A stretch of 64,000 nucleotides of DNA, taken from the NCBI GenBank assembly GCA_030390025.1, contig CM059431.1, positions 106,890,001 to 106,954,000 on the forward strand. The letters run 5' to 3'. The number at the start of each line of letters is the position of its first letter. Position 1 is the first letter of the stretch. Below, piece after piece: positions 5,906-64,000 of this stretch. The notes beneath the pieces were generated by a model. That model made no database searches. It worked only from the letters and a program-made list of their open reading frames with translations, and was not told the DNA's origin. Made by a program: the position numbers and the translations under genes. Source of the stretch: Squalus acanthias. Taxonomy: Eukaryota.

Positions 5906-5960
5906 TCAGAGCAAATGGGGCGGGCAGGTCATTAAAATGGAGTTTGACATGAATCTTGTA

Positions 5961-7445: not shown

Positions 7446-8042
7446 CTGCACACACTCCAAGTTAAAATTGGAGCTGTAAAGTTTGTTTAGCTAAACATTG
7501 TTCTTCAAATGTTCAGTTTGACGATGTCAAATCCTTTTGAAAGGCATGAACTACTAATCTCTAATGCGACTGAAATATCTTATTCACTCTTAGCTGAAAA
7601 TAAATCAATACTAAATAAACATATCAAATAAACAACACAAGGCTTTGTATTCTGTGTCAATAACTAATCAAGCTCCTTACCCCTCACAATTCACCTTGCC
7701 TCAGCTGGGCAAAGCTTGAATGGGGCTTGTAGAGATATATCACCTGGGATCTTCAAGATGACAGTCAAGATGCTGGCCATGGGGTAGAAGTTGGTTCATG
7801 TCGGCAGACCGGGGAGAACTGGGCTCAAGGAACGATCGACATTAGGCCCCAGGCCTCATTTTAATAACATTGGGCCTTGGGTCTCACTTTAATTAGACGG
7901 GCGAGCTGCGGACACTTACTGCATGTCACCAGGCAGCTCACCAGCAAAGGGATGGTGAAAGTCGGGCAACTGGCAGCAGCACTCCGGTAGGTTATTTTCA
8001 CCTTTTTGTCTAGAGAAAGACAACATGGTGCTCAGCAAATAT

Positions 8043-11000
8043 TGTAGAATTCGCAATATAATCGCGATTTTATAAATAAGGAGAAAACACATAGTTTCGT
8101 TCAAACAGCTTTATTTCAGCAGAATGCTGTCAGGTTTTCAAAGTGGACACAAGCAGCCTGTAAAATGGCCGCCACGCCTCGTGGCAGAACATTCTAGACT
8201 TTTCGATAAGCAGACAAGATGGCGTTCCAATAAACATTTGTGCGAGATCGATCAAGACTCAGCACATTTGAGATAATACACGAGACATTATGGGTTTGCA
8301 GTATACACATAAATACTGAAATCGGTCTCCCAGGTGCGAATAAGGGCTATTGTACCAAGCGATCAAGAACCCATCCAAAGACATTAATATGCAAAATCCC
8401 CACGACTCTACGATGAGAGAGCCGTTTGCGGGTAGTTACAGAAAACATTTGGAAGCCCCAAAACCCCTCCAGGGAGAATACCGACCGGTTACACATTGGA
8501 AAAGTATTAACAGGTACTCAGACAGTTACGAGTATCCCCGAAACCCATTAAAACGGAGATCACCCTATACAAGAAATTTGAGCGCCAAAACCCTAACAAA
8601 AGAAAAGACATTAAGGTTGGGCGGGAAAAGAAGAGTTTTCGCACTATAACTGTAAGCTGCAACCGTCCATCTTTCTCTTATCCTTTCGACTCCTTGCCGC
8701 TTGCCTCGTGTCTCTGCCTCTTGCAGCTTTTAAAGACTGTTGAACTTTACGATCCGCCAGGATCTGCCTCGTGGCTTGCCGCGAAGATCTGTGTGGAACT
8801 GGGCTGTGAAGCCTTGAAACGGGCACGCCATCCCGAGAAGTCGGTACACGGTGTTGGAATCGAAGGCCTGAGATGAGATGAGATGAGATGAGATGAGAAG
8901 AGAAGAAGACGACCATACATATCGCCACGGTCAGTAAGCCCCGACCGTGCCTGTAGGTCAAAGAGACACTTTCCTTGCCCAGGAAGACCATCTTTGAGTT
9001 CTACAGAACTGGCATCGGAAGACTATTCTTTGAGTTTTATCGAATCAGTGCGAGGGCACAGGAAGACTATTTTTCGAGTCGTGTCGGAACTCCGAGGACA
9101 ACACAGATCTTCATGACAGCAGACGGTCCAGTCTGTTAGCCGGAGCAGAAACGAGTAAACAAGTGGGGTACAGAGACCCCTGATCAACACGTGGGTGATC
9201 AGGTGCTGCGGTGAAAAACATCCGATCAGAGTTTTCGGAATTCTCCGAGTTATCACGAGTGGTGAGCATGAGTCTCGATCCTACAAATCTAGTTTAGAGC
9301 AGGTATTGATAGGGGAGGGTTTAAGTTTTAAGGATAACTGTAATGTGTGCCCCCATTTACGATGTGTCGTTCGTTCCTCGTTTCCCTGAAATTAGTTACA
9401 TAACTGCGTGTAAGATTGTACTGTCATTAATCTGTGCTTATGACATGTATTTCGTAATCTTGAATAATATGCAATAAAGATTTTCCATTTCGTACCATTC
9501 AACCGGGTCTACCTGAGTTTTCTCTCCATTACTGCTCTCGCATCTAAGTCCAGTGTCAGAACCGTAAGGGCGAGTGGGTCATAAGAACATAAGAACATAA
9601 GAAATAGGAGCAGGAGTAGGCCAATCGGCCCCTCGAGCCTGCTCCGCCATTCAATAAGATCATGGCTGATCTGATCCTAACCGCCAATCTACTATCTATC
9701 ACAGAACCATCTCCTGCATCTAACAGAATTGCACACACTAAATAGGAGCAGAATCAGGCTACACAGTCCCTGGGCCCGCTCCACTACCCACAGGGCCATG
9801 ACCGATCCGAACCTAGACTCATGTCCAAATTCCTGCCCGCTCCCCGTAACCCTTAATGCCCTTTACTTCTAGGAAACTGTCTATTTCTGTTTTAAATTTA
9901 ATTAATGTTGTAGCTTCTACAGCTTTTTGTGGCAGCATATTCCATGGACCTACCACCCTCTGAGTGAAGTAGTTCCTCCTCATCTCAGTTTTGAAAGAGC
10001 AGCCCCTTATTCTAAGACTATGTCCCCTAGTTCTCGTCTCACCCGTCATCGGGAACATCCTCCCCGCATCCACCCGATCCAACCCCTTCACAATCTTATA
10101 TGTTTCAATAAGATCGCCTCTCATTCTTCTGAACTCCAATGAGTAGAGTCCCAATCTACCCAACCTCTCCTCATATGACCACCCCCTCATCCCCGGGATT
10201 AACCGAGTGAACCTTTTTTGCACTGCCTCGAGAGCAAGGATGTCTTTCCTTAAGTAAGGACACCAAAACTGTATGCAGTATTCCAGGTGCGGTCTCACCA
10301 ATACCTTGTACAACTGAAGCAATACCTCCCTATTTTTATATTCTATCCCCCTAGCAATGAAAGCCAACATTCCATTTGCCTTCTTAATCACTTGCTGCAC
10401 CTGCATACTATCCTTTTGAGTTTCGTGCACCAGGACCCCCAGATCCCTTTGCACTTCAGTACTCTCCAGTTTCTTGCCATTAAGATAATAAATTGCTCTA
10501 GGATTTTTCCTGCCAAAGTGCATCACCTCACACTTTCCAGTGTTGTATTCCATCTGCCAAATCTCTGCCCACTTACTTAGCCTGTCTATGTCCCCTTGCA
10601 GGTTTTTTATGTCCTCCTCACTCACTACTTTCCCTCCCATCTTAGTATCATCTGCAAATTTTGATATGTTACACTTGGTCCCTTCCTCCAAATCGTTAAT
10701 ATAGATTGTAAAGAGTTGGGGACCCAGCACTGACCCCTGTGGAACACCACTAGTTACTGATTGCCAGTCTGAGAATGAACCATTTATCCCAACTCTTTGC
10801 TTTCTGTTAGATAGCCAATCCTCTATCCATGCCAGAATATTACCCCCAATCCCGTGATTTTTTACCTTAAGCAATAATATTTTGTGTGGCACCTTGTCAA
10901 ATGCCTTTTGGAAGTCTAAATACACTACGTCCACTGGTTCCCCTTTATCCACTCTATATGTTACTTCCTCAAAGAACTCCAGCAAATTTGTCAAACATGA

Positions 11001-11230
11001 CTTCCCCTTCGTAAAACCATGCTGACTTTGTCCTATTAAATTATGATTATCCAAATGTCCTGTTACTGTTTCCTTAATAATGGACTCCAAAATTTTACCT
11101 ACCACAGATGTTAGGCTAACCGGTGTCTAGTGCTCCCAGACTGGCTGGAGACCAGAACAGGCAACAAGGCCTAACCTCGCACTAGCACCCAGGCTGAGCA
11201 CAGAGCCACACAAGGTCAGAAACCCTTACA
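8043..11230 (+). mobile_element. Solo LTR related to the provirus LTR, interrupted by CR1
   Basis: TG...CA with ATAT TSD (8039-8042 and 11231-11234). Shares blocks such as AGCCTGTAAAATGGCCGCC, GCAGACAAGATGGCGTTC, AGAACCGTAAGGGCGAGTGGGTC and AAGGCCTAACCTCGCAC with the reverse complement of 51770-53425. Confidence 0.9.
9580..11120 (-). mobile_element. Young 5'-truncated CR1 LINE with open RT frame (9819-11105)
   Basis: 428-aa uninterrupted RT ORF (DFQKAFDKVPH, GVPQGSVLGP, FADDTK); (CATAAGAA)n tail at 9580. Confidence 0.95.
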
Positions 11231-38965: not shown

Positions 38966-41592
38966 GATATAATTCATCCACCTGATTACAAATGCTCCTC
39001 GCATTAAGACACAAAGCCTTCAGGCTTGTTTTTTTAACACTCTTAGACCTTTTAGAATTATTGTTTACTGTGTCCATGTTTGATTTACACCCTTGAATTC
39101 TCTGACTTCCACTTTTGCTTTTCTCCTTCCTGTCTTTTGCTTCTATCCTTGCTTCCCTTTCCTCTGTCTCCCTGCACAGGTTCCCAACCCCCTGCCATTT
39201 TAGTTTAAACCCTTCCCAACAGCACTAGCAAACACTTCCCCCAGGACATTGGTCCCGGTCCTGCCCAGGTACAAACCGTCCAATTTGTACTGGTCCCACC
39301 TCCCCTAGAACCAGTTCCAATGTCCCAGGAATTTGAATCCCTCCCCCTTGCACCAATCTTCTAGTCACGTATTCATCTGAAAAATCCTTCTATTTCTACT
39401 CTGACTAGTACGTGGCACTGGTAGCAATCCTGAGATTACTACCTTTGAGGTCCTATTTTTAATTTACCTCCTATCTCCCTATATTCAGCTTTTAGGACCT
39501 CATCCCATTTTTTTACCTATATCGTTGGTACCTATATGCACCACGACAACTGGCTGTTCACCCTCCCCCTCCAGAATGCCCTTCAGCCGCTCCAAGACAT
39601 CCGGCCTCTGCGCAAATAGATGTAAATGGATATGATATAATTGGGATTATGGAGACATGGCTCCAGGGTGATCAAGGTTGGGAATTCAACATCCAGGGGT
39701 ATTCAATATTCAGGAAGGACAGGCAAAAAGGAAAAGGAGGTGGGGTAGCATTGCTGGTTAAAGAGGAGATTAACACAATAGTAAGGAAGGATATTAGCTC
39801 TGATGATGTGGAATCTGTATGGGTAGAGTTGAGAAATACCAAGGGGCAGAAAACGTTAGTGGGAGTTGTATACAGACCCCCAAACAGTAATGCTGAGGTT
39901 GGGTATGGCTTTAAATCGGAAATTAGAGATGCGTGCAATAAGGGCACAGCAGTTATCATGGGTGACTTTAATCTACATTTAGATTGGGCTAACCAAATTA
40001 GTAACAATACTGTGGGAGAGGAATTCCTAGAGTGTATACGGGATGGTTTCCTGGACCAATATATCGAGGAACCAACTAGAGATCAGGCCATCTTAGACTG
40101 GGTATTATGTAATGAGAAAGGATTAATTAGCAATCTTGTTGTGCGAGGCCCCTTGGGGAGGAGCGATCATAATATGATAGAATTCTTCATTAAGATGGAG
40201 AGTGAAGTAGTAGTTGACTCAGAGACTAGGGTACTGAATTTAAATAAAGGAAACTATGATGGTATGAGGTGCGAGTTAGCTAGGATGGATTGGGGAATGT
40301 TAATTAAAGGTTTGACGGTGGATAGGCAATGGCAAACATTTAAAGATTGCATGGATGAACTACAGAATTTGTTTCTCGCTGTTTGGCATAAAAATAAAAC
40401 AAAAAAGGTGACTCAACCGTGGCTAACAAGGGAAATTAGGGATAGCATAAGATCCAAGGAGAGGACATATAAATTGGCCAGAAAAAGCAGCAAACCTGAG
40501 ATTGGGAGCAGTAGCAAAGAGTTGGAATAAATGGGTCTTTTTCTGAGTGGCAGGCAGTGACTAGTGGGGTACCGCAGGGATCGGTGCTAGGACCCCAGTT
40601 ATTCACAATTTATATTAATGATCTAGACGAGGGAACTAGATGTAATATCTCCAAGTTTGCAGATGACACAAAGCTGGGTGGGCGTGTGTGCTGTGAGGAG
40701 GATGCAGAGAAACTCCAGTATGATTTGGACAGGTTGGGTGATTGGGCAGATGCATGGCAGATGCAGTATAATGTGGATAAATGCGAGGTTATCCACTTTG
40801 GTGGCAAAAACAGGAAGGCAGATTATTATCTGAACAGCAATAGATTTGGAAAAGGGGAAGTGCAACGAGACCTGGGTGTCTTTGTGCACCAGTCGCTGAA
40901 GGTAAGCATGCAGGTGCAGCAGGCGGTTAAGAAGGCAAATGGTATGTTGGTCTTCATAGTGAGAGGATTCGAGTACAGGAGCAAGGATGTCTTGCTGCAG
41001 TTGTGCAGGGCCTTGGTGAGACCACACCTTGAGTATTGTGTGCAATTTTGGTCGCCTTATCTGAGGAAGGATTTTCTTGCCATGGAGGGAGTGCAGCGAA
41101 GAATCACCAGACTGATACCTGGGATGGCAGGAATGACGTATGAAGAGAGATTGGGTCGATTAGGCTTATATTCGCTAGAGTTTAGAAGAATGAGAGGGTA
41201 TCTCATTGAAACTTATAAAATTCTAACAGGACTAGACAGACTAGATGCAGGAAGGCTGTTCCCGATGGCGGGGGAGTCCAGAACCAGGAGTCACACTCTA
41301 AGGATAAGGGGTAAGCCATTTAGGACTCAGATGAGGAGGAATTTCTTCACCCAGAGAGTGGTGAACCTGTGGAATTCTCTACCACAGAAGGCAGTTGAGG
41401 CCAATTCATTAAATATATTCAAGAAGGAGTTAGATACATTTCTTAAGGCAAAAGGGATCAAGGGATATGGGGAGAAAGCAGGGACAGGGTACTGAATTTG
41501 GATGATCAGCCATGATCACATTGAATGGCGGAGCAGGCTTGAGGGGCCGAATGGCCTACTCCTGCTCCTATCTTCTATGTTTCTATGTTTCT
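38966..41592 (+). mobile_element. CR1 with inverted 5' segment and internal deletion
   Basis: 38966-39602 (minus) carries the ORF1 end and ORF2 start. 39605-40505 is APE endonuclease (ETWLQ, MGDFN, SDHN) and 40510-41495 is the RT C-half; TTTCTATG tail. Confidence 0.9.
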
Positions 41593-48620: not shown

Positions 48621-51600
48621 TAAGTGTTTTCCAGATGTGCAGAGAGGAACTTGATGTACCACAACTGGCTGCAATAGATAACTTGGGAACAGATATGTGT
48701 TATAGAAAGCTATCTGGAAGGTCCACATTCAAGAATACTTACACATAACATTTTGGACCCATTTCTCTGTGCAAAATGAAGTAATTTATGTGCAAAGTGA
48801 AGTAATTTATTTGCAAAACAATTGATACTGCATTCCTAGCCACCAAGCCCCAAAACACAGGAAAAAAACCTTGCATCTAAATCAATTACCATCTTAAGGT
48901 ATTTGTCATACTTTATAATCCAGCAGCAATCATTAGGCATCCTCTCATCAATTCTGCATTAATTATTGTTTTCACAGTAATCCAAGAATGGTCTAAACCT
49001 ATCCTTTGTTTCCATACAAATTTTCTATACAAATTTTCTGATAGAAAGCGTTTGATATTCGGAGCAGATCCAAAGGATTATGAAGCTAAGAAGATCAAGA
49101 GGTTAATAAATTTAACAGTTCAGCAAAAGAGTCCAAATAATTGTGATAATTTACCTTCGATTCCATCTGACTTGACTCTCCAATTCTATTTTCCCTTTTG
49201 TGGGGAAAATGTCAAGCCTCTGTTCTCTATCTTTTCCCAATGGCACCATTGAGGATGGGAGGCCAACCTACAGGCTATTACAGGCACGAACACGCAATTT
49301 ACCACATTATGGCACAGCCGATTTTGCGCTTGGGAATCAAACTGCTCATTCTTTGTGGTCTAGCGATGCCATTTACCATTCCAGACAAGGAAAATGTGTA
49401 GAAGATTTGCTATTTGTCAGGAACAATCTGCAGTTATTAAAGATGTTTGAGACTTCTGTGGGTGGACTAGTATTGTGAGATTATGAAATGTATTAAGATT
49501 TAAGAACCTAGCTTTTGTGAGATTATAAAATGAATGAAGCTTTATGATTCTAAAATGTATCATGCTTTATGAATATTCCTTTTTTTTATGAAATCGTCCT
49601 TACTGCTGATGAGACATTACTGTTGGTGGTTATCAACTGTGCAAGGCTTAGACAAGTTTTTTATAGAAATGGTCAAATCGTGCAAGGTTCAACTATGTTT
49701 TTTGCAGAAGTGGGAATGAGATTTAGCGAGCTTGTGCAGAAGTTAGGCTTGTGGCTGCGTCCTGTTATTGTAATGAAATGTCACAGGTCAAGATGAGATA
49801 ATGGCTACATAATTGAACATGCAAAGAAGCCCTCTTGGATTAAACAGATATGGAACTGTCCCCATGACAAGAGAATGGGGAAACTTCTAGAAGTCTTGCA
49901 CCCGCCACAAATGATTGGATAAGAGGAGTCAACTGACCTCAACAAAGAGGGATAAAAAGAGACTGACCTGAGATGTAGAGATGGTACATGTGGAGATGGA
50001 ATTATGGTAGTCAAATGCACTTAATGTCTCTCTGGTACGCTGGTATTGAGGAGCGGATCCATGCTGGCGAAAGCCTAATGCTCTTCTCTGCTCGTAAGAT
50101 AACCGCTGGACTGGATTAAAGAAACAATGGAGACATCGCACGCTGCACTGTCCAGTGACCGAATTTGGTAATATCCTTTGGAACTGTAAATTACTGTCAG
50201 TTAATATTAGTCTTTTCCGGCTGTATTGATTTCCACTGTATACCAATAAAACATCTACCCATTGCCAATATGGAGTCACGTCTGAATCATTAAGTTTGGG
50301 GTGTAAAACCTCTTACAGTATTCTGATCTCCCCTTTCTACCTAAGGGAACGTGCCCCCTCCACGAGATGGTATAACCGAGATCAGAAAGCTGAGGATCAC
50401 CTTGGGGGACATGAGGGTTGACCAACCATCTTTTGAAACATGGAGGTGGACCTTATATCTTGCTACTATGACCGTTGTCTTTCCTTAGATTCTTCAAGAG
50501 AACTGAAGGTTTATCTGTTGAGAATTCATACCTTCTCTTGTGTGCAGGGTACTGAAAACGATATTCAGATCTGATCTCTCTTAGCTATAGATCTAAGATG
50601 TTACAATGCAGCTCATTCTTATTTAGTATTGGGGAGAAGTCCTGAAAAAATATTCCTCTAGTTTTTTTTTTAAGAGTCACTTTAACTGTACTTAATAGAT
50701 CCTTCTTAAATTGTCAATGAAATATACCAACTTAAAAGTTACACTATTGATTTATTTCTTTTTTGTAAGTGCACATGAAATTTGGTCACACTTTCACTTT
50801 CTGGAATTGGAATGTTAAATACCAAAGTCCTAGTAAAGCCGATCAGATCCATTCTTTCTAACAACTCTGAAGTTACTAACCAAAGTGTTATTTTGTGTTG
50901 CTCATATAAGGATATGAAGAAGTGACTGACGCAGTTCAGATAAATTGTAAGAAATTTAAGTAGTGTAAATAGTGTCTTCAGCTCCTTTCGTTCAGTAGTG
51001 AATGATGCAAGGGTTTGATTTTCGTTTTTGACTTGAAAATTGAATTTAGCTTCGAGATCCAAAATCTGGATATTTGCAAAGGAAGTTGAATCAAGTGTAA
51101 TCTCCGCCATCATTTTGAGCTAGCGTCGTGGAATTAGATAAAGGTACCGTAACGTTGCAAGTAACTGTGGGACAGGATGTTAAAGACTGTTTGGATGCTC
51201 TCAATCAAATCTGTCGTTGGCACAGTGCCGCAGCAAAAAGCTACCATAACTTGGCACAAACTCGCAATCACGTTCAGAATTATTGTAATGATAGCCAATG
51301 CGGGAAGTAGTAAAAAAGTCTTGTTGGTGCAAAGGAGGGTGCTGTTATTAAGTAGGGAAATTATTGGTGCAGATTTGACCATACTGTACCTATCCTGGGA
51401 ATACTTGATGCTGAACAACAAAAGTATCAAAAGGATTTCATTTTCTGGCATTATCATTGATCTTGATGAGGGACAACCATCAGACTATCTCCTAGTCTCT
51501 GATTGGATTACCAAGGATTTGATGGCTGCACCACAGCAGAAAGCTGTGTGACGAGCAGGTAAAGTGTGAATTAAAAATCGACTTCAACCAACTTGTCTCT

Positions 51601-51769
51601 GGGAAGAACCCATTCTCTTTTGACCACAGTGACTTGTGTGCATAATTGGTTGTACAATCAGACCGTGACAGTGTATTCAATGGGAAGTGGCTGAGCCAAT
51701 GTTCCTTCGTGGTTTCTAAACAAATGCATTAAAACAATCAAGTAAAACAAGTTGCTTGGTGGTTGGGAC

Positions 51770-53425
51770 TGTAAGGGGTTTCGGCGTGCTTGTATCGCAG
51801 ACGGTGCTGGTGCGAGGTTAGGCCTTCGTTGCCTAATACTATTGCTTGCTCTGGTCTCGGCCAGCCTTGTTGCAATAAGCACCTGTGAGTGGTTCGACCC
51901 ACTCGCCCTTACGGTTCTAACACTGGACTTAGGTGCGAGAGCAGTAATGCAGAGAAAAACTCAAATAGACCCGGTTGAATAGTACGAAATGGAAATCTTT
52001 ATTGCATAGCGTCCAAAATCATGAAGTACATGTCATAGGCGCAAATTAACGAGAGTACAAGTATACATACATTCATAAAGCTTGGTCTATGGTAATGAGG
52101 AACGCACGGCACATCGTAAAAAGGGGAACACATTATACTTTATCCTTAATAAAACCACCCTCCCCTATCAATACCTACACTACACCTAGATTTGTAGGAT
52201 CGGGAAACATGCTCACCACTCGTGATACTTCGGAGAATTTTAAAGTGAGGCACTCGGCTCATTTCGCTGCAGCGCCTGACTGTCACGTGTTTGGAGGGGT
52301 CTCAGTACCCCACTTGTTTATCTTCGCTGCTGCGGCAAGCAGGCCGGGCTCCCCGTTGTCATGAAGAACTCGACAGAACTCGGGCCCGGCTGTAGAACTC
52401 AAAGAAAAGTCTTCCTGTACCGACACCAGTTGTCGGTAGAATTCAAAGAAGAGTCTTTGACCGGTTCGTGCAATAACCTGTAGAGTTCAAGAAGTGGGTC
52501 TTATAATTTCGGGCGTGGTCGGGGTTTACTGACCGCGGCGGCACGTGGATTCTTCTTCTTTTCTTGTCATTTCGTCTTTTCCTGTTGGGCCTTCGGGTCC
52601 AGACACCGTTTACCGATTCTCGGGATGGTGCACCCGGTCACTTGCCTTTGTCGAGGCGGCTCGTTCCGATTGAGCTCCACCCAACATTCGAATAACCGTC
52701 CAGTGCGGCTAAAGTCCAGAGTCAACAGAGTCCAGAGAAACACAGAAGGCTGCTCGTCCAGCAGAGCGATACCCGAGGATCAGAATAGGAGAATAAGAGC
52801 CGATTCGAGCGAATAAGAGAGCGATGGACATTTGTTCACTATAGTTATAGTGCTGTGTTCCCTTATCTCCCGCCCAAATCTTAATGTTTGTCCTTTGTGA
52901 AATATTGGCGCTCAAAACTCCCAGCATGGGGCGATTCTTGTCTTTAACGGGTTTCGGTAGCACCTGAAACTGGCCAACTACCCGTTAATGTTTTCCTCAT
53001 TGTTGAACCGGCTAGGAGCCTCCCTGGCTGGGTTTTGGGGGCCCCCGAATACTTGTTTAATCACCCGAGAATGGCTCTCTCATTGTAGAGCCGTGGGGGT
53101 ATTTGTGTGTTGATGTGTCTGGATGGGCCTTCGATTGCCCAGTACAATGGTCCTTACTTGTGCATGGAAAACGATTCCAGCACTCATATCTTTTGCTATT
53201 GTCACAAATGCAAACAGTTTGCATCCTGTCTTATATTGAAATGTTTATTCGAACGCCATCTTGTCTGCCCACTGTAATTCTGGAAGCTTCTGCTACGATG
53301 CGCGGCGGCCATTTTACAGGCTTCTGTGTCCTTTATATCATGACAGCATTTCATTTAATAAAACTGATCAAACGAATCTGCTTCTATCTTGTTATTTTGA
53401 ATCGCGATAATTGCGAAACTTTACA
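51770..53425 (-). repeat. 3' LTR (1656 bp)
   Basis: TG...CA; AATAAA on the minus strand at 51998-52003; near-identical to 60823-62479. Confidence 0.97.
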
Positions 53426-53437
53426 GTCCCTCCTGTT
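53426..53437 (-). promoter_or_regulatory. Polypurine tract
   Basis: AACAGGAGGGAC lies immediately before the 3' LTR on the minus strand. Confidence 0.8.
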
Positions 53438-53708
53438 GATGCGAATAACTCCGCTTATCGTATCAATTAAAAATGGTGGTGAGCAAAATTATCCTGATTC
53501 TCCACATCCAAACACTCCCTTAACTTAAACTATCTATGGCCTCCATGCCGTCCTCATTTCCCAGGGAAATTACATTGTCTAAACTTAGACAAAACGTAGG
53601 CAGTATTGCCTTTAAACTTACACTGCGTATACGCCTTCCAGGTGCAAAAGGCCGATGCCTCTCGCACCACCTGTATATGCATATTTTATTACACAAGGAA
53701 AAAATAAT

Positions 53709-54452
53709 GGCCCAAAAATTAGTGAGTGAGCCTTCGTGCGAGGGTAAGGCCTTCCCACGATCTCTCACTGCGCGCTGGCTTTTTCAGTCCGAGCTCGCAC
53801 GAACTTGATGTTCTGGACAGCAGCTGTGCAGGGCTTTCGTATCCCACAGGCGTAGTTAATTCGTGCGAGCTGTGGGATCACGTGACTCAGTTAGAGCCAA
53901 TGGCAGCACACCATCTTTCATTCATAGCTTTCACAGCACGGCTGTGAAAGCAATGAACACTATACCCCCCCAAAAGAACAGCTAAACCTCAATTAAATTT
54001 AAAAAATAAACCATCACATTAATAAAATAAGTATAGTTAAATAAATTAACCATTTTAAACAAAAAATTAAATTTTTGAAAAAATTTAAAATCTTTTAAAA
54101 AGTTATAAAAATAAACTTACCTGTCTTTAAAGTCTCTAAAAAAGATATACCTGTTAAAAAAAATTCAAAATAATACTTAATTAAGTACTTACCTTGTTAA
54201 AAGAGGGTCTTACACCTCCTTTCTTTATGTCTAAAATCTTCCATGCTTACCTGCGCGTTCAAAGCACTAAGTGCACTGCGTGCGCGCAGCCTGTAGCGCA
54301 CACGCGGTTCACCTAGGAACCGCCCCCTTTTGAATTCACCAAGTGCCGGTTTTCAGCGCATGCGCAGTGCATGCAGAAAACCGGCAATTGGAGACAGAAT
54401 ACGCGAGAGTACACAGTGCGTACTCTCGCGTAGCGGCACTAATTTTTGGGCC
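53709..54452. mobile_element. Harbinger-type MITE in the proviral 3' UTR
   Basis: 16-bp TIR GGCCCAAAAATTAGTG with AAT TSD. Confidence 0.9.
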
Positions 54453-54566
54453 AATCAAAACAACCATTTTAAAATACAAAGTTCCAAACTTAGTTACACA
54501 TCTACATAACTAAACAATCAATTACAAAACACACATGGTAAAATGGAGCGGTGTCATCCTGGCCGT

Positions 54567-57500
54567 TTACGCAGCGCTTTCCTCGTTCACGCGCACGTAA
54601 CGTTCTCTCCACTCCCCTGTGTTCTCCTGCTTTGTGAGGCGTTTGCCTCTCTTGCAGTGCACGACCAATAGGTACACTACAATTATAACTTGGCACACAA
54701 CCAAAATGTGGGAGGCTATCCTGATCCATGAAGGAACTTCAATATTGGTGAACAGATCTCACCACGGTGGGATTACTATGTCCAAAAATTTCTGTCCCTA
54801 TTTCTACTGTTTTCTGTTCCAGGGTGTAAAAATGTTTTTGTGATACCGCGACGGCTTTCAAAAGCTTGGTGAGGTGTTCAGGGAGAGGGGGAATGATGTA
54901 TCCGAAATGCGCGACGAATCGCTGCAAGTCGGTGAAATTCTCTTTTACTGTAAGGTGAACAGTGGATGGTTCAGGGATCGGGACAATTCGCTGTTGTGCC
55001 ACTTGAACTTCAGCCCTGGGTTTAAAACAGAAACTGCTGTCACTCACCGGACACCGGCTGGTGTGTCCATGCTGGTAGTGTTGCGCTGCAGTGGTAACGC
55101 AATATGTTCCACCCCCTATGTATGCCACCTGCGGAGGCACATGATCCTGTGTCATTGCTTCCATGGTGCAATTCATGGGCTTCGCGCCAGCCGTTCTGAA
55201 CCCGCATTGTGGTGTTAAAAAGGCATTCAAGTGCTGGGGACACAGTATGATGTGTGCTCCCCGGCCACGACAACCCGAGAGATCGGTACCTGTCATCGTT
55301 TGCTCCCAGCGGATGACGTAAGGTGGGACCGCTGCGTAGCGAATGTGGGCTCCCCCCTGAATGACACCAATGTTCTTCACCCGTTGCACCGGGGCAGGCT
55401 TTGCCGTTTCGCCCAACACCGGCATACATAAGAACATAAGAACATAAGAAATAGGAGCAGGAGTAGACCAATCGGCCCCTCGAGCCTGCTCCGCCATTCA
55501 ATGAGATCATGGCTGATCTGATCCAACCTCAACTCTAAAGAACACAAGAAGCAGGAGCTGGATCAGGCCACTCGGCCCCTGGGCCCGCTCCGCCACCCAC
55601 AGGGCCTTGACCGATCCGAACTCAAACTTATGTCCAATTTTCAGCCCGCTCCCCGTAACCCCTGATTCCCTTTACTTCTAGGAAACGGTCTATTTCTGTT
55701 TTAAATTTATTTAATGAAGTAGCTTCCACAGCTTCCTGGGGTAGCAAATTCCACAGACCCACTACCCTCTGAGTGAAAAAGTTTCTCCTCATCTCAGTTT
55801 TGAAAGAGGAGCCCCTTATTCTAAGATTATGTCCCCTAGTTCTAGTTTCACCCATCATTGGGAACATCATCACCGCGTCCACCCGATCAAGCCCCTTCAC
55901 AATCTTATATGTTTCAATAAGATCGCCTCTCATTCTTCTGAACTCCAATGAGTAGAGTCCCAATCTACTCAACCTCTCCTCGTATGTCCACCCCCTCATC
56001 CCCGGAATTAACCGAGTGAAACTTCTTTGTACTGCCTCGAGAGCAAGTATGTCTTTTCTTAAGTATGGACACCAAAACTGTATGCAGTACTCCAGGTGCG
56101 GTCTCACCAATACCCTATACAACTGCAGCAATACCTCCCTGTTTTTATATTCTATCCCCCTAGCAATAAAAGCCAACATTCCATTGGCTTTCTTGATCAC
56201 CTGCTGCACCTGCATACTAACTTTTTGATTTTCTTGCACCAAGACCCCCAGATCCCTTTGTACTGCAGTACTTTCCAGTTTCTCGCCATTAAGATAATAA
56301 CTTGCTCTCTGATTTTTCCTGCCAAAGTGCATAACCTCACATTTTCCAATATTGTATTGCATCTGCCAAATCTCTGCCCACTCACCCAGCCTGTCGATAT
56401 CCCCTTGTAGGTTTTTTATGTCCTCCTCACTCTCTACTTTCCCTCCCATCTTTGTATCATCTGCAAACTTTGCCCATGATGGTATGATTTGACCGTCCGC
56501 AGTCCACGGGGACTGGATCCTTTAAGTGTAGTGTCATGGCCTGGTCCTCATGTAACTCAGACCCTACTACCTTGTTTTCGCTTGTGAGGATGCTTTTTAA
56601 TTGTGTTTTTAAACCATTGATCTGGGTCTGCAGCTCCACATTGTCTAGAGCGTTGACCACAGATGTTCCTGTATTAAAGGCAGTGAACATATTGTTCACA
56701 ATACCCCTTCTTTGTCTCCCCACCTGACCCAAAACTTCGTGTGGTGTGGTGTACAAGCTTGTTTTGTCAATCTCCGCAAAATCAAACTCGTAGAATTGTC
56801 TGAACATGTTTGTCAACAGGACCTGGTACAATTGTTCTGTCTCTTTGGGGCACCACTCTGGTAAACGCACCTCGGTGAGATTTAGAATCACCGAAGCCAC
56901 CGCGTAATGTACCCCTTGAAATAGTATCTGGTCTGTTGGGACCAGTACCAAACCATTCCCGGGCCCCTTAGTGGTTTTAGGGCACCCTTCCTCCTGAGCC
57001 AAAACCACCGGAATCGTGGGCGGAGCCTTGCGTGGGCGCGTGCTGAGTTCAGTGGCGTTTACCGGGATCGGGGAGAATGGAGCTCCGCACCCCTTTGTGC
57101 TGACATCCCACCTCATCCCTTTCCTGTTATCCTGCCACTGGTGTACGAAAAATATGGATATACCCTTGGGGCAAACGTACTTCGATCCCCACATACAAAC
57201 ATATATTCCCTCATCCGGTTCCCACCATTTGTCCCAACAGACTTTCAATTGTCTGTTAGTCCCCATAATTGTCCGATGGGTGTTGTTACCCAATCGCTCC
57301 CACTCAACCGAGGAATTTCTCATAGTCTTGCTTAATTTCCGTAACCACCACCATCGGCTCAATGGGACCTTCCCATTGCATGTCAAACAAATCCTTTTGC
57401 CGACGGTGACGCTGATTCTGGGTGCAATGATCCTCACTCTGGGGCACAGTAAAGAAGTCTCTTTGTAGGCAAATCCGGATGCGCTGGAGTATTCCATTGA

Positions 57501-57695
57501 ATTCGTTCCCAGCCATCCCGGCCACCTTCCCTTGTGGAAATAAATGGCAGTCTCCTCAGCCTTTCGCTCCCCGGTCCCATCCGTCGCGATGGGTCCCGTG
57601 TCCCCGGAGCAACCAAACACAACGACATCCTTGGTGAGGCCCCGATAGGCCAATCCATATCCGATCGTTGCGAGCACTATCAGAATCCTTTCCAT
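54567..57695 (-). pseudogene. env: Envelope glycoprotein, split by CR1, with a frameshift and a stop near the TM segment
   Basis: Signal peptide MERILIVLATIGYGLA; furin site RQRR (56706-56717) followed by a hydrophobic fusion peptide and heptad repeat. Cys-rich part at 54780-55425; TM IASHILVVCQVIIVVYLLVVHC then KRGKR; TAA at 54567. Confidence 0.85.
55426..56471 (-). mobile_element. Young 5'-truncated CR1 inserted in env
   Basis: Open RT C-terminal ORF at 55628-56449; (CATAAGAA)n tail; same subfamily as 9580-11120. Confidence 0.95.
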
Positions 57696-57926
57696 CTTTC
57701 CTGGTTCCTGTGATCAGATAAAATGATGTAGCCAGCCTCCCAAGAGTCTCTGGCTTTTGTGAAGGGTGAGCGGGTCCCTTGACCTCGTCTCACGTATAAC
57801 GACATGTATGCTGGATAGACTTTAACTATTCCTATCTTTAACTCCCATCATTCACCATTTACTTTTAAAATTAAAACTACAATCTTACCAAACTTACAAA
57901 ACTTAAACTTAAACTTAACCTAAACT

Positions 57927-59018
57927 TAACTGTACAGTGCCGCCCGTTCCCAGGGCGGCCTACCTAAATTCTGCGAAGGCTGCCACGAGCTTTTCCCAGT
58001 GGTGGGAGGGCACTGACCCCTTCCTTTGATCTGCCGCAGCCTGTCGCCGCTGCGCTGGGACTGGGATCTCCCTGGGCTGCCTTGACCTTGAACTTACGCC
58101 TGGGGGCCTACGGGGGACTTGACCACGACTTCCTGGGCTGGGGTGTCCGACTTGACCTACGGAGGGCTACTTTGGGCAAGATTTCCAGGGCCGACGGACC
58201 AGGAACCAAGACTTCCACCGTCGCGGCCTGTGGTCCCACCACAGCCGCTGGCTCCGTCTCCCCTGGCTCCGCCCCCCTGAACTCGGGATTTGCAGTTTCT
58301 GGCTCCACCCTACTTGGCCCAGTATGTGGTCCTCCACTCGCAATTCCTACCTCCCCCAAGGGCAAGACATCCAGGGCCGACGGACCGGGTACCGAGACTT
58401 CCACCGTCACGACCTGTGGTCCTACCACAGCCGCTGGCTCCGTCTCCCCTAGCTCCGCCCCCCTGGGCTCGGGATCTGCAGTTTCCGATTCCACCCTGTG
58501 TGGATCTCCACTCACAGCCCCTATCTCCCCTGAGCTTGAGTCGAGGACGAAACTTTCGTCCTCTGACCCCAGCACCTCTCCGATCGGGTCACTACCTTGG
58601 TCGAGCTCCTCGAGCTCTTCCTCATCTGAATCCCAACACCAAGAAAAGATCCTACACTTTTCTAGAATGTCCTCTCCTCTCAAGCAGGCTGCTTTACCGG
58701 TCTGTGTGCCCTGCGGTCCTACCCGGGGCTGCGAGTCCCCACTCGCAGTTTTGGCCCCTGTGATTGCCCCTGTGCACCCGGTTTATACAACTTGCACTGG
58801 TTTAAATCCTCATACTTCCTGCTTCTGGCTACCCTGCAGGCTGCCTTTATGTCTGCCTTTATGTCTCTAAGCTGCCCTTCCAGCCCGTCTACTTTCCCCA
58901 TTAAACGGGCGTTCTCCTCCCGTATGGCCTGCTCTTTTAACCTGGCTTCCTTACAGGAGACCCCCTCCTGTGCGTGTCTTTTAAGGGGACACAGGTAGGC
59001 AGGCTGCACCGGTTCCAG
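57927..59018 (-). pseudogene. Disrupted accessory ORF2: Gag-like coiled coil followed by an acidic/Pro-rich region with a 62-aa repeat
   Basis: ORFs 58719-59009 and 58108-58683; tandem duplication 58176-58310 vs 58362-58497. Confidence 0.55.
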
Positions 59019-60818
59019 TCAGAAGCCTGGGTGGTATGGGGCTGTTGCTACCTCCCCGTGCGAAATCATAAGAGACCGCATGGCTCCTAACATTGATTCT
59101 ATCGCATCGGGATGGATAGGCACACCAGCTCCTTTCTCAGAGACAGGCGCTTGGGTTCGGGCTGCGGGATTTTTATCCCTGGGGTCCTTCCAGGGGTTCC
59201 TACAGTTCTTACGCCAGTGACCTGTCTTCCCGCACCCGTAACAAGCACCACTGGCTTGTGGGGCGCGGTTTCCCTCCTGATGCCACTCCTTTTGAGCCGG
59301 GGCTGCGAGCCGTGCCTCATGCACCTTTCCCTTAAGGGGACGCGCTCCCGTGCTCCTAGTGTTACGATACCCTATGGTGAGTCGATTTAGGACAGACTCC
59401 TCTGTTGTGGCGGGGTTAGTGGGATCAAACCATGCTTTGGCCTGCTCCCTGACGGCTGGTAAGCTGTTGGCTACTAAACACCTGAGCCAGTGAGCTAAAC
59501 CGGCACCGTTCAGGTAGTCGTGCCCCGGCGCACCTGGGCAGCTACGCTGGTATACTGGCCACAGCCTGTCGGCGAAAACCTTCGGGGGTTCTCCCTCCAT
59601 CTGTATGGTTTGACTCAATATGACGAACGGACCTTCGTCATCCGCCCCTAACACTTCTAGGACCTCGTCCCGTAACTCCTCATAGGTTTTATTTCCCTTC
59701 TTGCTCTCGTCTGAGAGACACTGAAGGATCGAGCTATCTAACGAGAACAGCAACATTTTGGTCTTTTCCACATCGTCGCAGCCATTAATTGCTGCGGTCT
59801 GTTCTACCTCCCTAAAGTGTACGGAAGGGTCGTCTGACTCGGACAGCTTCCGTACATGGCTAATCATTGCTCTCAGCTGGTGTGAGCTGTGAGGCAACAC
59901 AAGCTGGTTCAGGACATCCCCGTCATCCCCATTGGCTGCGTTCGGGCCTCTCTTGTAACCTCGGAGCGGACACATCGGTCCCGGGCTCGACTCTACCTCC
60001 GGGGACTGTCCTACCTCGGGAACCTCCTTTTCTATTTCCACCACTTCCTCCCTTACCCAGGTTGCCGAATAGCTGGGTGGCGCGGAGGGCACAGTGGCAA
60101 ATACCTCCTCTGCTTTGTCTGGTAGGGATTTTGGGAATTCCCTACCCACCTGTGGCTGGTTTTCTGACGGGCTGATGAGGCACACCAAGCCGTTTGCCTT
60201 ATTCAGGGCCTCTCTTTGGTTCCCTATCTCCTTCTGGCAAACACTGTGGTCGGCTCCCTCATGCCTATCCTCGAGGGCCATCTTATATGCCGCCCTAACT
60301 CCCTTCAAGCTTTCTTCCTGGGCTTTTATCTGGTTAGCTAGGCGGGCACACCGTTCTCTAATCCTACCCTCGTTTAATTTCGCTTCCGTGACCTGACACT
60401 CTAGGTAATCAATTTTAGCCTCATGGTGGTTGGCTACTATCTGGTGTTCCTGATGTAACGCATTCAAGGATGCAATGAGTTTCTGTCCTCCCGTGATCTT
60501 TTCCTCCATCTCAACTTCCAAATCCCTGATCTGAGCTGCCTGTGCCACAATGACCTGGTCCGAAAGTTGGACTTGCTTCTTGTAGCACATCAGCCAGACC
60601 GCTTTCTCTACCGACTTCTTATGTTCTTTACTGCCTGTCCATTTGATGGCTGCGTCTCGCGGACGCTTATCCATCAGTAGGTCACTTATCCACCTTTTGG
60701 TTAAGTTAACCTTCCCAAACACATAGTCGGCTACCCTCTCATCCATCACATTTCGCCTATTCACACCAGGGTCTAAAACATTACCCTCTCGCTGCCAGTG
60801 TCCTGCCACGGTCGCCAT
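59019..60818 (-). CDS. gag: Gag polyprotein, 599 aa
   Basis: Open frame from AAAATGG. N-terminal coiled coil, PSAPPSY, capsid-like region and CCHC knuckle CYGCGKTGHWRKNC (59202-59243). Confidence 0.92.
   Translation of the reverse strand: MATVAGHWQREGNVLDPGVNRRNVMDERVADYVFGKVNLTKRWISDLLMDKRPRDAAIKWTGSKEHKKSVEKAVWLMCYKKQVQLSDQVIVAQAAQIRDLEVEMEEKITGGQKLIASLNALHQEHQIVANHHEAKIDYLECQVTEAKLNEGRIRERCARLANQIKAQEESLKGVRAAYKMALEDRHEGADHSVCQKEIGNQREALNKANGLVCLISPSENQPQVGREFPKSLPDKAEEVFATVPSAPPSYSATWVREEVVEIEKEVPEVGQSPEVESSPGPMCPLRGYKRGPNAANGDDGDVLNQLVLPHSSHQLRAMISHVRKLSESDDPSVHFREVEQTAAINGCDDVEKTKMLLFSLDSSILQCLSDESKKGNKTYEELRDEVLEVLGADDEGPFVILSQTIQMEGEPPKVFADRLWPVYQRSCPGAPGHDYLNGAGLAHWLRCLVANSLPAVREQAKAWFDPTNPATTEESVLNRLTIGYRNTRSTGARPLKGKVHEARLAAPAQKEWHQEGNRAPQASGACYGCGKTGHWRKNCRNPWKDPRDKNPAARTQAPVSEKGAGVPIHPDAIESMLGAMRSLMISHGEVATAPYHPGF
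60801..60817 (-). promoter_or_regulatory. Primer-binding site, tRNA-Arg(UCG)-like
   Basis: TGGCGACCGTGGCAGGA lies 5 nt after the 5' LTR. It is complementary (one mismatch, from recalled sequence) to the vertebrate tRNA-Arg(UCG) 3' end TCCTGCCGCGGTCGCCA. Confidence 0.75.
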
Positions 60819-60822
60819 TTTC

Positions 60823-62479
60823 TGTAACGGGTTTCGGCGTGCTTGTATCGCAGACGGTGCTGGTGCGAGGTTAGGCCTTCGTTGCCTAATACTATTGCTT
60901 GCTCCGGTCTCCGGCCAGCCTTGTTGCAATAAGCACCTGTGAGTGGTTCGACCCACTCGCCCTTATGGTTCTAACACTGGACTTAGGTGCGAGAGCAGTA
61001 ATGCAGAGAAAAACTCAAATAGACCCGGTTGAATAGTACGAAATGGAAATCTTTATTGCATAGCATCCAAAATCATGAAGTACATGTCATAGGCGCAAAT
61101 TAACGAGAGTACAAGTATACATACATTCATAAAGCTTGGTCTATGGTAATGAAGAACGCACGGCACATCGTAAAAAGGGGAACACATTATACTTTATCCT
61201 TAATAAAACCACCCTCCCCTATCAATACCTACACTACACCTAGATTTGTAGGATCGGGAAACATGCTCACCACTCGTGATACTTCGGAGAATTTTAAAGT
61301 GAGGCACTCGGCTCGTTTCGCTGCAGCGCCTGACTGTCACGTGTTTGGAGGGGTCTCAGTACCCCACTTGTTTATCTTCGCTGTAGCGGCAAGGAGGCCG
61401 GGCTCCCCGTTGTCATGAAGAACTCGACAGAACTCGGGCCCGGCTGTAGAACTTAAAGAAAAGTCTTCCTGTACCGACACCAGTTGTCGGTAGAATTCAA
61501 AGAAGAGTCTTTGACCGGTTCGTGCAATAACCTGTAGAGTTCAAGAAGTGGGTCTTATATTTTCGGGCGCGGTCGGGGTTTACTGATCGTGGCGGCACGT
61601 GGATTCTTCTTCTTTTCTCGTCATTTCATCTTGTCTTGTTGGGCCTTCGGGTCCAGACACCGTTTACCGATTCTCGGGATGGTGCACCCGGTCACTTGCC
61701 TTTGTCGAGGCGGCTCGTTCCGATTGAGCTCCACCCAACATTCGAATAACCGTCCAGTGCGGCTAAAGTCCAAAGTCAACAGAGTCCAGAGAAACACAGA
61801 AGGCTGCTCGTCCAGCAGAGCGATACCCGAGGATCAGAATAGGAGAATAAGAGCCGATTCGAGCGAATAAGAGAGCGATGGACATTTGTTCACTATAGTT
61901 ATAGTGCTGTGTTCCTTTATCTCCCGCCCAAATCTTAATGTTTGTCCTTTGTGAAATATTGGCGCTCAAAACTCCCAGCATGGGGCGATTCTTGTCTTTA
62001 ACGGGTTTCGGTAGCACCTGAAACTGGCCAACTACCCGTTAATGTTTTCCTCATTGTTGAACCGGCTAGGAGCCTCCCTGGCTGGGTTTTGGGGGCCCCC
62101 GAATACTTGTTTAATCACCCGAGAATGGCTCTCTCATTGTAGAGCCGTGGGGGTATTTGTGTGTTGATGTGTCTGGATGGGCCTTCGATTGCCCAGTACA
62201 ATGGTCCTTACTTGTGCATGGAAAACGATTCCAGCACTCATATCTTTTGCTATTGTCACAAATGCAAACAGTTTGCATCCTGTCTTATATTGAAATGTTT
62301 ATTCGAACGCCATCTTGTCTGCCCACTGTAATTCTGGAAGCTTCTGCCACGATGCGCGGCAGCCATTTTACAGGCTTCTGTGTCCTTTATATCATGACAG
62401 CATTTCGTTTAATAAAACTGATCAAACGAATCTGCTTCTATCTTGTTATTTTGAATCGCGATAATTGCGAAACTTTACA
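60823..62479 (-). repeat. 5' LTR (1657 bp)
   Basis: TG...CA; followed by the PBS on the minus strand. Confidence 0.97.
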
Positions 62480-64000
62480 GGACAGTTTGTTTAAAATATT
62501 AATGTGCAGATTGACAGACAGCAGAAGAGATGATTTCAATCTGTCCAGATATTGAGCCATTACGGGAAAAGTTCAGAGGAAGTGACTGAATCCAGACATA
62601 CTCATAAGGTGTGACATCTTTTGTTTATTAACATCAAGGTAGTGGCTCTAAACATGAAAGATGTCCCATGGCATAAATCACAGTTGGTTAGATTCAGTTC
62701 TGGCAGGAATTTATAACTGTCTGGATAAACTGGGATTTGCTTCATCCATTTACAACATTGCCTCTGTAAAGTCCTGCAAAAGACAAACCTGCTTCATCCT
62801 GTTGTTTATTTGACTTTTTCCAAGAAATGTGTTCTTAAAAGTGTATATTATTCTCTCAATTCTAATTATTTTTAAGTATTGTGCTGATTCAACGCATTGC
62901 TGCATTGGCTTCTGCGGATTTATTCTGTAAAAATAATTCCACCGAGTAGTTTTAGCCCAACACACTGGCTGATCAGTGCATTTTCCACCCTTTGGAAGTG
63001 GCAGTAGAATTCGATGGGCGTTTATCCACAATTAGGGGTCAATTGTTAAATCTGGGCATGTTAAACCATAACATGGCATGCATTAGCACAACAGATGTTG
63101 GTTCCTATGAAACATGGTCTGCTCATTGTAGCTGCTTTTGCTACGAATAAAGTGTTGAGGAAAAATCCCAAACTGTAACGGGCCCCATAACTCGATTAGA
63201 TTACCATGTATGTATCTGATGCATATTCCAGCAGGAGCTGGAGGCCCAGCTGCGATCTGTTACTTTTCTTCCTGACTTAAAACAAACAAAGTTTAAGAAA
63301 AATAACTTTTTGCCGTGTTGAATCTATCAACAGATAGCAGATGCTTGTTCGCCACTTGCCAGTATGGTGGGGTAGCTTACAGTATGTAAAACATGGCACA
63401 GTATACATGCTTTTGTGCCACCTTTTAATGAGGCAATCTGGCTTGAATTAGGAAACACCTGGGCATATTTTTGACAAAACCTGATATGCAATAATTCAGG
63501 GTACTTTAGTTTATAATTCAGCTGTGATATCACTTGTATGCATTATTTCCATCAATTAGTACAGTTAAAAGCTAAATAGATTTGAAAATGTTGTTATTGT
63601 TCAATCTTCAATAATTGTTTTGAATTAATTGCGCTCGTCAATGAACAAAAACTATCCCCAAGGATTGGTTTGGACATTCAAATTTTGATGGGCCTTCCCC
63701 ATAACCTTGCAGTACGGTGCTTTCAGGAGACAATTTAATGCTGGGGGTGGGGGGGGGGGGGGGCGGGTGGATGTTAAAAGCCAAATTTCAATCTTCAGCA
63801 TTCAGTAGAAAATCATGGGCAATGCACGCTCAATTTTTCAATATGTGCGCCCTATAACGCAAAGCACTGTGCTGGAAGCACTGAAAACAAAAAATTACCA
63901 GCTGGCTGAAAGAGTGGCACAGGTTGGAAACCCATTTAAACTATGAGGGTAGATTTTATGTGTTTGTGCTCCCATTGTGAAGCTTCGCATGTCAGTATAT

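Follow-up and report, generated by a model that had tools for sequence, protein, structure and literature searches.

A 64,000-nucleotide stretch of the Squalus acanthias genome (assembly GCA_030390025.1, contig CM059431.1, positions 106,890,001 to 106,954,000; hereafter the window) contains on its minus strand, between positions 57695 and 54567, the env gene of a long terminal repeat (LTR) provirus. Our results make it likely that this is a dead envelope gene of a recently active retrovirus family, and that the envelope protein (Env) which the family encodes is a class I fusogen of the kind known from the fusion (F) proteins of paramyxo- and pneumoviruses ('class Ib', F-type), with an N-terminal extension that includes a probable immunoglobulin (Ig)-like domain. 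The gene begins with an ATG at 57695-57693 and ends with a TAA at 54569-54567. A hydrophobic N-terminus opens its 418-codon frame (56457-57713), which encloses SVTVGKRICLTC, WWW, DEGIYVC, RQRR, GIVNNMFTAFNTGTSVVNAL and LQTQINGLKTQLKSIL; DEGIYVC is encoded precisely by 57215-57195, and GIVNNMFTAFNTGTSVVNAL comes immediately after RQRR, with the heptad stretch LQTQINGLKTQLKSIL next. In the segment 55430-54567 a Cys-rich part precedes a helical stretch, which leads to a hydrophobic anchor and finally a short tail. All the features quoted in the original prediction, which had been made from the letters of the window alone (Ig signature, WWW, DEGIYVC, RQRR, fusion peptide, heptad, Cys-rich region, second helix and transmembrane segment), lie where it had placed them.

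The window copy is damaged in several ways. When compared with natural intact copies, its codons 1-393 align without gaps at 97.5% identity, codons ~394-479 (~86 codons) are missing, codons 480-496 are kept, and after codon 496 the gene is broken by a ~1.04-kb fragment of a long interspersed nuclear element (LINE), to be picked up again at codon 497. The insertion bounds lie near the join that had been proposed, and the predicted frameshift and premature stop were confirmed (Table 1). The predicted lengths, ~690 residues for the protein and ~360 for the subunit after cleavage, were too short because the 86-codon gap had been overlooked; the family protein has 783 residues and its post-cleavage subunit 453. 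This copy is dead and unable to work, since half of heptad repeat A is gone and a LINE, a frameshift and a stop are added to that loss. Even without its other lesions the copy would be dead, because the second half of heptad repeat A falls in the gap.

The 783-residue protein is encoded by natural intact copies such as L003 and L007, which share the same architecture, and its residues 238-783 form a complete F0-like module. The predicted furin-type site, RQRR, stands directly before a hydrophobic fusion peptide that begins GIVN(D/N)MFTAFNTGTSVV, and heptad repeats A and B and a C-terminal anchor follow, which is the layout expected of an F-type protein. Ten Cys are conserved, in from at least 26 of 30 to 35 of 37 aligned relatives; of the two in the F2-like piece, Cys238 is present in all 23 and Cys282 in 23 of 26. 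There are 11 N-glycosylation sequons. Heptad a/d positions are 67-78% hydrophobic in the best register, as against 32-45% overall. Hydropathy gives a single peak over threshold, in the windows starting at 728-740, and RX[KR]R occurs only twice, once at 327-330 and once, at 757, in the cytoplasmic tail. Gamma-type membrane subunits carry a CX6CC motif and an immunosuppressive domain (ISD); a regular-expression search of the full-length family protein found no CX6CC, CC or ISD-like motif, in accordance with the original prediction.

The F-like nature of the core is strongly supported by structure prediction. A natural intact copy was modelled with AlphaFold2 from an alignment of 58 natural sequences, many of them fragments, taken from database relatives and from open frames of divergent copies in the same genome; host-fused chimeras and a few short matches were left out (P0003, P0009, P0015, P0017, P0023, P0026, P0027, P0035, P0039-P0041, P0045 and P0054). 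The predicted local distance difference test score (pLDDT) is 85-96 over residues 240-310 and 420-650. A Foldseek search of the PDB with this model gave 228 matches at E≤1e-3, and the top matches listed were all paramyxo- or pneumovirus F proteins, namely those of human parainfluenza virus 3 (hPIV3; 1ztm, 4.9e-10), parainfluenza virus 5 (PIV5; 2b9b), respiratory syncytial virus (RSV; 3rki), Langya, Nipah, Hendra and Newcastle disease virus (NDV). This bears out the paramyxo/pneumovirus-F-like fusogen that had been proposed. In a VIA-align comparison model residues 244-652 run parallel to F ~25-432, a range that begins where F2 begins and closes with domain II, and the modelled domains I-III are collinear with those of F over 280-335 aligned residues. 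Among the predicted viral structures of BFVD, matches included lispi- and arlivirus glycoproteins, baculovirus F, paramyxovirus F0, toro- and coronavirus spikes, the Envs of two walleye epsilonretroviruses (1.6e-10 and 1.5e-8) and feline foamy virus gp130 (8.5e-5). Foamy virus Env was present in the wide scan and absent from the 50 matches listed in a second look based on Foldseek. Sequence profiles, which involve no structure, point in a similar direction. The family profile matched foamy virus Env in the PDB at E 0.002, 0.0087 and 0.012, the paramyxovirus F family PF00523 was matched at E 0.036 and 0.086 by two divergent relatives in the same genome (12.8 and 11.6 bits; gathering score 29.8), and Baculo_F at E 0.0011 by relative P0035.

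Several points weigh against this interpretation. The model is a monomer with a mean pLDDT of only 63 and a predicted template modelling score (pTM) of 0.49; pLDDT stays under 50 across 314-392, where the fusion peptide and the beginning of heptad repeat A lie, and over most of the N-terminal extension, the fold searches barely probed the Ig-like part, and AlphaFold run on the 783-residue sequence alone reached just pLDDT 32. TM-scores are low (0.2-0.3 on the query) and the root-mean-square deviation is large in many matches, so global superposition is poor and the resemblance to F holds domain by domain. Pfam found nothing significant in the 783-residue protein, in which PF00523 did not appear at E≤10, no match to PF00523 at E≤0.1 was seen in 17 relatives, and wherever PF00523 or Ig families were matched the scores stayed under the Pfam gathering scores. 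The check that had been suggested for the fusogen gave F proteins on the side of structure and, in two relatives, a PF00523 signal below its gathering score on the side of sequence families. Pfam and PDB searches with the window's own pieces gave nothing significant.

One could ask whether the match to F is an artefact, i.e. whether AlphaFold, given a thin alignment, drew a generic helical class I protein whose long helices were then matched. The 58 rows with their many fragments and the low pTM speak for such a reading. We consider it very improbable, because the parts modelled with high confidence are the beta-rich domains and not the helices, the aligned residues run collinearly from F2 to domain II, and the profiles mentioned above lead to foamy virus Env and PF00523 without any model. 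An ordinary gamma-type (TLV_coat) Env that has diverged past recognition is even harder to credit. It could draw on the single CXXC (CLTC, residues 103-106) of the surface subunit and on a reverse transcriptase (RT) nearest to gammaretroviral RT among solved structures. That CXXC falls within the Ig-like domain, though, the motifs of gamma-type membrane subunits are lacking, the membrane subunit is 453 residues long with F-like beta domains, and no TLV_coat match appeared at E≤10, whereas best matches of this type would have spoken against the original prediction. A gamma-type Env was rejected, as it is contradicted by the fold results.

The assignment of the N-terminal domain is a separate matter. 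Residues ~88-175 are probably an Ig-like domain, judging from motif, profiles and model together. They show the canonical spacing of Cys106 (strand B), Trp115-117 (strand C) and DEGIYVC ending in Cys167 (strand F); the pattern C-x(8-16)-W-x(35-65)-D-x-[GA]-x-Y-x-C, chosen after the match had been seen, occurred in 12 of 20,000 shuffles of the 783-residue protein. When eight N-terminal segments from sharks, a skate and frogs were searched, six matched Ig_3 (best 3.8e-4), two I-set and one V-set (0.0015), and a profile built from the eight gave 60 PDB matches at E≤1, of which 58 are Ig-superfamily proteins by name, with titin (6.9e-5), contactin-3 (2.4e-4) and JAM-A (1.2e-3) at the top, followed by CD8 alpha, NCAM2, CRTAM, antibodies and T-cell receptors. 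The AlphaFold2 model places seven beta strands within residues ~91-170, in the proper order, and the Chiloscyllium relative P0013 bears the automatic UniRef name 'Ig-like domain-containing protein'. The opposing view, that the core is F-like and the N-terminal domain is some other small beta domain which resembles the Cys/Trp/Cys arrangement by chance, seems to us unlikely, but it has to be taken seriously. All Ig matches of the eight segments lie below the Pfam curated cut-offs, with Ig_3 in the window family at E 0.33-0.74 on whole proteins and at 0.017 when the segment is searched by itself (16 bits, where the cut-off is 30). The pLDDT of residues 91-170 is 38-75, with 52-75 for the beta strands at 93-169, only two columns are invariant across the eight aligned segments, neither Cys is present in the frog relatives P0037 and P0056, and P0012 and several lineages within the genome show no Ig match. 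The Ig-type clusters to which ESM Atlas assigned the N-terminal part scored 0.80, and shuffled proteins can score as high. The Ig-like module of the original prediction is moderately supported by its Cys-Trp-Cys/DxGxYxC pattern and by profile matches that are consistent but stay under the Pfam cut-offs.

The family to which this copy belongs is a high-copy, recently active endogenous retrovirus (ERV) of cartilaginous fish. The 3.7-Gb assembly was searched in six frames with the first 407 residues of the window env, which gave 8196 candidates at first look. At least 102 scored genome copies are 94-97% identical to the query, and 37 of the 102 sit in a 789-codon open frame with a match free of stops. 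Many older env lineages, 33-80% identical to the Chiloscyllium protein, are present in the same genome, and at least one divergent lineage of this kind, L019, is open over 784 codons. When 1.84 billion representatives were searched exhaustively with phmmer (E≤0.001), 47 database relatives emerged, among them proteins from sharks and a skate (Mustelus, Chiloscyllium, Scyliorhinus, Heterodontus, Pristiophorus and Rhinoraja) and from frogs (Xenopus, Pelodytes and Lithobates); word-based homology searches brought few more (2, 11 and 2 proteins). A search of IMG/VR with Pol patterns for exogenous relatives found none. Two other origins of the open frame were considered and rejected, a chance open reading frame and a host gene with a viral-looking domain; in the latter case env lies between LTRs in at least 102 copies. 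Public gene models join env pieces to host genes in P0003, P0008, P0009 and P0035 (cadherin-related, Niban 1-like, zinc finger ZFP2-like and fbxo15), and such fusions are probably annotation artefacts that arise from unmasked env copies.

The env gene has been under purifying selection. The ratio of nonsynonymous to synonymous substitution rates (dN/dS), pooled over pairs of 10 copies, is 0.15 for residues 396-728, a region that played no role in choosing the copies; against this figure it must be held that it pools non-independent pairs without a tree and that the copies were picked as the best protein matches to residues 1-395. In the N-terminal parts dN/dS is 0.06-0.12, a value biased by this choice of copies. 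An eleventh copy, L012, was left out as its 3' half could not be aligned. With so many open frames and a dN/dS of ~0.15 the family is exceptionally well conserved, and it follows that the envelope was required during the spread of the element.

The N-terminal extension is the variable part of the protein. Distant full-length relatives align only to residues ~221-760 of the 783-residue query, the first ~220 residues vary by lineage, and in relative P0038 the signal peptide runs straight into the conserved F2-like core with no N-terminal module. The extra ~220 residues precede model residue 238-245, the point at which the alignments to F and to foamy virus Env both start. Because this extra module stands in front of a complete F0-like unit, it is the natural candidate for a receptor-binding part.

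Fold and layout suggest how the protein may work, by analogy with known F proteins. The signal peptide would bring Env to the endoplasmic reticulum, and a furin-type protease would cleave after RQRR330, which would expose the hydrophobic fusion peptide as the N-terminus of the 453-residue membrane-anchored subunit. Env presumably assembles as a metastable trimer, with the N-terminal extension and its Ig-like domain most likely binding the receptor. Upon a trigger, heptad repeat A would extend and drive the fusion peptide into the target membrane, and heptad repeat B would then fold back onto heptad repeat A into a six-helix bundle in the fashion of paramyxovirus F.

It is instructive to set this Env beside the systems already described. 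With paramyxo- and pneumovirus F0 (PF00523) it shares the order of parts from the F2-like piece to the anchor and an F1-like subunit of similar size (453 residues). It differs in falling below the curated Pfam threshold, in having the ~220-residue extension with its probable Ig-like domain where those viruses have a separate attachment protein, and in being encoded by a reverse-transcribing LTR element and not by a negative-strand RNA virus. The Env gp130 of foamy viruses, whose structure was solved in 2024, is described as having an F-like, 'class Ib' core with modular receptor-binding inserts (PMC11468914). It too is a retroviral Env with an F-like core, it is the best PDB match of the sequence profile, and both proteins carry a receptor-binding module of their own on an F scaffold, that of the shark Env being putative. 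According to the account in PMC11468914 the foamy leader peptide has a second membrane span and the receptor-binding domain lies inside the F2 equivalent, whereas the shark Env has an ordinary signal peptide, one ectodomain furin site and one anchor, with its extra module placed before the F2-like piece. The elements also differ in that the shark Gag has a CCHC knuckle and gag, pro and pol share one frame.

Lokiretroviruses, as published by Wang and Han (PMC7947760), have a vertebrate endogenous Env that comprises a signal peptide, an RXKR-type site, a fusion peptide, a coiled coil and an anchor and resembles PF00523 at E 2.2e-7. Compared by this published description only, the shark Env has the same set of features, and amphibian hosts are common to both; the lokiretrovirus BHIKHARI is described with a Gag of ~600 residues and an N-terminal coiled coil (PMC12067270), much like the Gag found here. 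The shark type reaches PF00523 at best at E 0.036, with no match in the window's own family, and an Ig-like domain is not among the Env features described in PMC7947760. Hosts from five classes are given there, and the main text does not contain 'shark' or 'cartilaginous'. Epsilonretrovirus Envs, those of walleye dermal sarcoma virus and walleye epidermal hyperplasia virus, resemble ours in predicted structure (the two BFVD matches given above), and fish and amphibians are hosts here too; epsilonretrovirus Envs are described as neither gamma- nor beta-type (10.1101/2021.11.23.469661). The walleye Envs rank under several F-type proteins of RNA viruses and baculoviruses in BFVD, and their length, 1159-1317 residues, has no equal among the 47 phmmer relatives. 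Baculovirus F (Ld130) and errantivirus Env are likewise F-type fusogens of DNA viruses and LTR elements, with BFVD matches from 3.6e-11 to 4e-8 and the Baculo_F match of P0035, but their hosts are invertebrates.

This last likeness raises the question whether the element could be an env-bearing LTR retrotransposon of the Ty3/gypsy type (errantivirus-like), with an F-type env from the invertebrate and baculovirus F lineage. The whole Pol of the family has the Ty3 Gag-Pol polyprotein as its best PDB match (3e-66), there is a weak SH3_Tf2-1 match past the integrase, Gag starts 4 nt after the LTR with no leader, and baculovirus F turns up among the matches of Env. We regard this origin as improbable. 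When the RT part is compared alone with solved structures, the gammaretroviral RT of murine leukemia virus (MLV; 8wus, 174.8 bits) comes before that of foamy virus (129.8) and that of Ty3 (4ol8, 125.8). Pol has a tether-type RNase H-like domain besides a second RNase_H, which is given as typical of vertebrate retroviruses in PMC13524379, a source whose authors also report that they came upon no intact vertebrate ERVs homologous to invertebrate errantiviruses. The integrase is nearest to foamy virus integrase among solved structures, and ESM Atlas returned only generic RT/RNase H clusters for Pol. A single gag-pro-pol frame with stop codons is reminiscent of gamma- and epsilonretroviruses. The weak PF00523 signal, the ~600-residue Gag with its coiled-coil-like stretch and the frog hosts are what hints at a lokiretrovirus-like position. 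As a rough estimate, a lokiretrovirus-like placement is the leading candidate, with somewhat less than an even chance, an epsilon- or gamma-like one is a real possibility, and any other placement is rather unlikely.

The idea of an F-type core in a retroviral Env is already in print and no longer surprising to specialists, so the original prediction implied too much novelty; what we describe is a real and interesting gene family. F-like Env was published by sequence in lokiretroviruses in 2020 (PMC7947760) and from the solved foamy virus structure (PMC11468914), F-type Envs of invertebrate errantiviruses have been described (PMC13524379), and a virosphere-wide survey points out N-terminal extensions on F-type scaffolds (PMC12583693). 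As regards sharks, one ERV study demanded a recognisable Env (PMC4422223), another reported no Env domain (PMC10699275), and a survey of anamniote Envs was restricted to the gamma type (10.1101/2021.11.23.469661). In the literature searched, mostly open-access papers without their supplements, we found neither an F-like retroviral Env with an Ig-like domain nor this env family in cartilaginous fishes.

The shark and frog family would be a third, well-populated example of F-like retroviral Env after lokiretroviruses and foamy viruses, and would represent a different way of carrying the receptor-binding part, in an N-terminal and probably Ig-like module ahead of a complete F0-like unit. This position, together with at least one natural relative that lacks the module, supports the notion of the F-type fusogen as a scaffold for swapped binding modules. 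Natural intact env genes exist for structural and functional work. Current domain libraries miss these genes, and gene predictors fuse them to host genes. A much wider hypothesis can be formulated, which we consider doubtful at present: that the F-type ('class Ib') Env is an ancestral or major ancient envelope type of vertebrate retroviruses linking foamy, epsilon-like and lokiretrovirus lineages, and that this family is a still or very recently infectious elasmobranch-frog branch which fused a host-derived Ig-superfamily domain onto the front of the F scaffold as a third receptor-binding solution. Should it be true, the triggering of an F-type fusogen by a receptor-binding module could readily be studied in this family, since a single genome supplies dozens of intact natural genes.

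Table 1. Parts of the provirus in the window and of the Env protein encoded by its family
Feature	Window position	Strand	Env residues or codons	Basis
5' LTR (TG...CA), with GTCC before it at 62483-62480	60823..62479	-		self-BLAST; ends read
gag, ~600 codons, with N-terminal coiled-coil-like stretch and one CCHC zinc knuckle	59019..60818	-		open frame; zf-CCHC E 0.005
Remnant of the pol 3' end: acidic, Pro-rich C-terminal extension with 186-nt tandem duplication	57910..58802	-		aligns to L013 8046-8937
env start and signal peptide	57639..57695	-	1-19	sequence; N-terminal helix 2-17 of the model
N-terminal extension (~220 residues)			20-237	
Probable Ig-like domain of the extension (Cys106, Trp115-117, DEGIYVC ending in Cys167)	57171..57434	-	~88-175	motif, profiles, shuffles, model
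F2-like segment with conserved Cys238 and Cys282, ending in the furin-type site	56706..56984	-	238-330	model 244/245 aligns to F ~25-34 onward
Predicted furin site RQRR	56717-56706	-	327-330	
Fusion peptide			from 331	
Fusion peptide and beginning of heptad repeat A, as kept in the window	56518..56705	-	331-393	sequence, model, comparison with intact copies
Heptad repeat A helices			352-444	
Short env piece between internal deletion and LINE insertion	56467..56516	-	480-496	comparison with intact copies
3' fragment of a presumably CR1-like LINE (ORF2 tail and 8-nt-repeat tail), inserted in env	55431..56466, bounds ±6 nt	-		other copies in the window; position within env
Beta-rich domains, six conserved Cys			477-645	
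Beta-rich F1-like domains I/II with six conserved Cys, plus heptad repeat B, as kept in the window	54789..55430	-	497 to ~711	sequence, model, conservation
Heptad repeat B helix			681-712	
Frameshift from a one-base length difference in the T run 54788-54784, followed by a premature stop at 54761-54759	54759..54788	-		comparison with intact copies
Trp-Trp			719-720	
Membrane anchor			~730-752	hydropathy peak, 19-residue windows starting 728-740
Cytoplasmic tail			last 31 residues	
Membrane anchor (~54728-54654), 31-residue cytoplasmic tail and stop in the window	54567..54728	-		63-aa frame, shifted; hydropathy peak
Insertion of 746 nt with perfect 17-nt terminal inverted repeats, MITE-like, foreign to the retrovirus	53708..54453	.		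inverted ends found
3' LTR, with polypurine tract AGGAGGGA (53434-53427) before and GTCC (51769-51766) after it	51770..53425	-		self-BLAST; ends read

The provirus around env is delimited by direct repeats that are 98.55% identical over 1659 nt, as found by self-BLAST of the window. They are LTRs of ~1657 nt with TG...CA ends and a 4-bp target-site duplication, GTCC. The gag gene of the window is 93% identical to that of the full-length copy L013, in which gag, the frame for protease and a pol frame of 1244 codons follow one another in a common reading frame with stop codons between them, and in which the domains RVP, RVT_1, RT_RNaseH_2, RNase_H, Integrase_H2C2 and rve are recognised. The window copy has lost protease, RT, RNase H and integrase, and nothing in it corresponds to L013 ~4330-8046. 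This deleted form is present in many copies. A 341-nt probe of the junction (58760-59100) matched over 335-341 nt in 27 other places of the 40 scored in the genome, and from this it looks like an amplified non-autonomous gag-env subfamily which would borrow Pol in trans. Several of these pol-deleted junctions adjoin open env frames. The 746-nt insertion, which resembles a DNA transposon of the miniature inverted-repeat transposable element (MITE) type, separates the env stop from the 3' LTR and is not present in two other copies.

The gag ATG lies just 4 nt past the end of the 5' LTR (60816-60823), which is unusual for a retrovirus, and any primer-binding site would therefore overlap the start of gag, leaving no leader outside the 1.66-kb LTR. 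Gag gave just weak zinc-knuckle matches against the PDB. In full-length copies the pol frame continues past the integrase into a long acidic, Pro/Ser-rich tail (window 58108-58782; L013 8046-8937), in which the two units of the tandem duplication (58174-58311 and 58360-58497) are 89% identical; no family matched this C-terminal extension. Directly upstream of env the full-length copies have a 778-nt stretch (L013 8937-9715, L007 506-1284) that neither the window nor the second gag-env copy inspected contains. Rfam at gathering thresholds gave no match in 51500-62700, and short contigs of seven sequencing runs (their kind is presumed), compared with 56473-62480, contained related copies in two organisms and no usable splice joint.

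The window consists mostly of repeats, with no host gene among the frames of at least 180 codons. Other copies of the LINE that splits env, which we take to be CR1-like from its tail repeat, are found at 9580-10801 and 40513-41474 and carry RVT_1 and endonuclease; LINE open frames lie at 9819-11126 on the minus strand (RT, E 1.5e-27) and at 39496-41495 on the plus strand (endonuclease and RT). An older related LTR is seen in the inverted stretch 8050-9580, which is 72-79% identical to parts of the LTRs and abuts a copy of this same LINE family.

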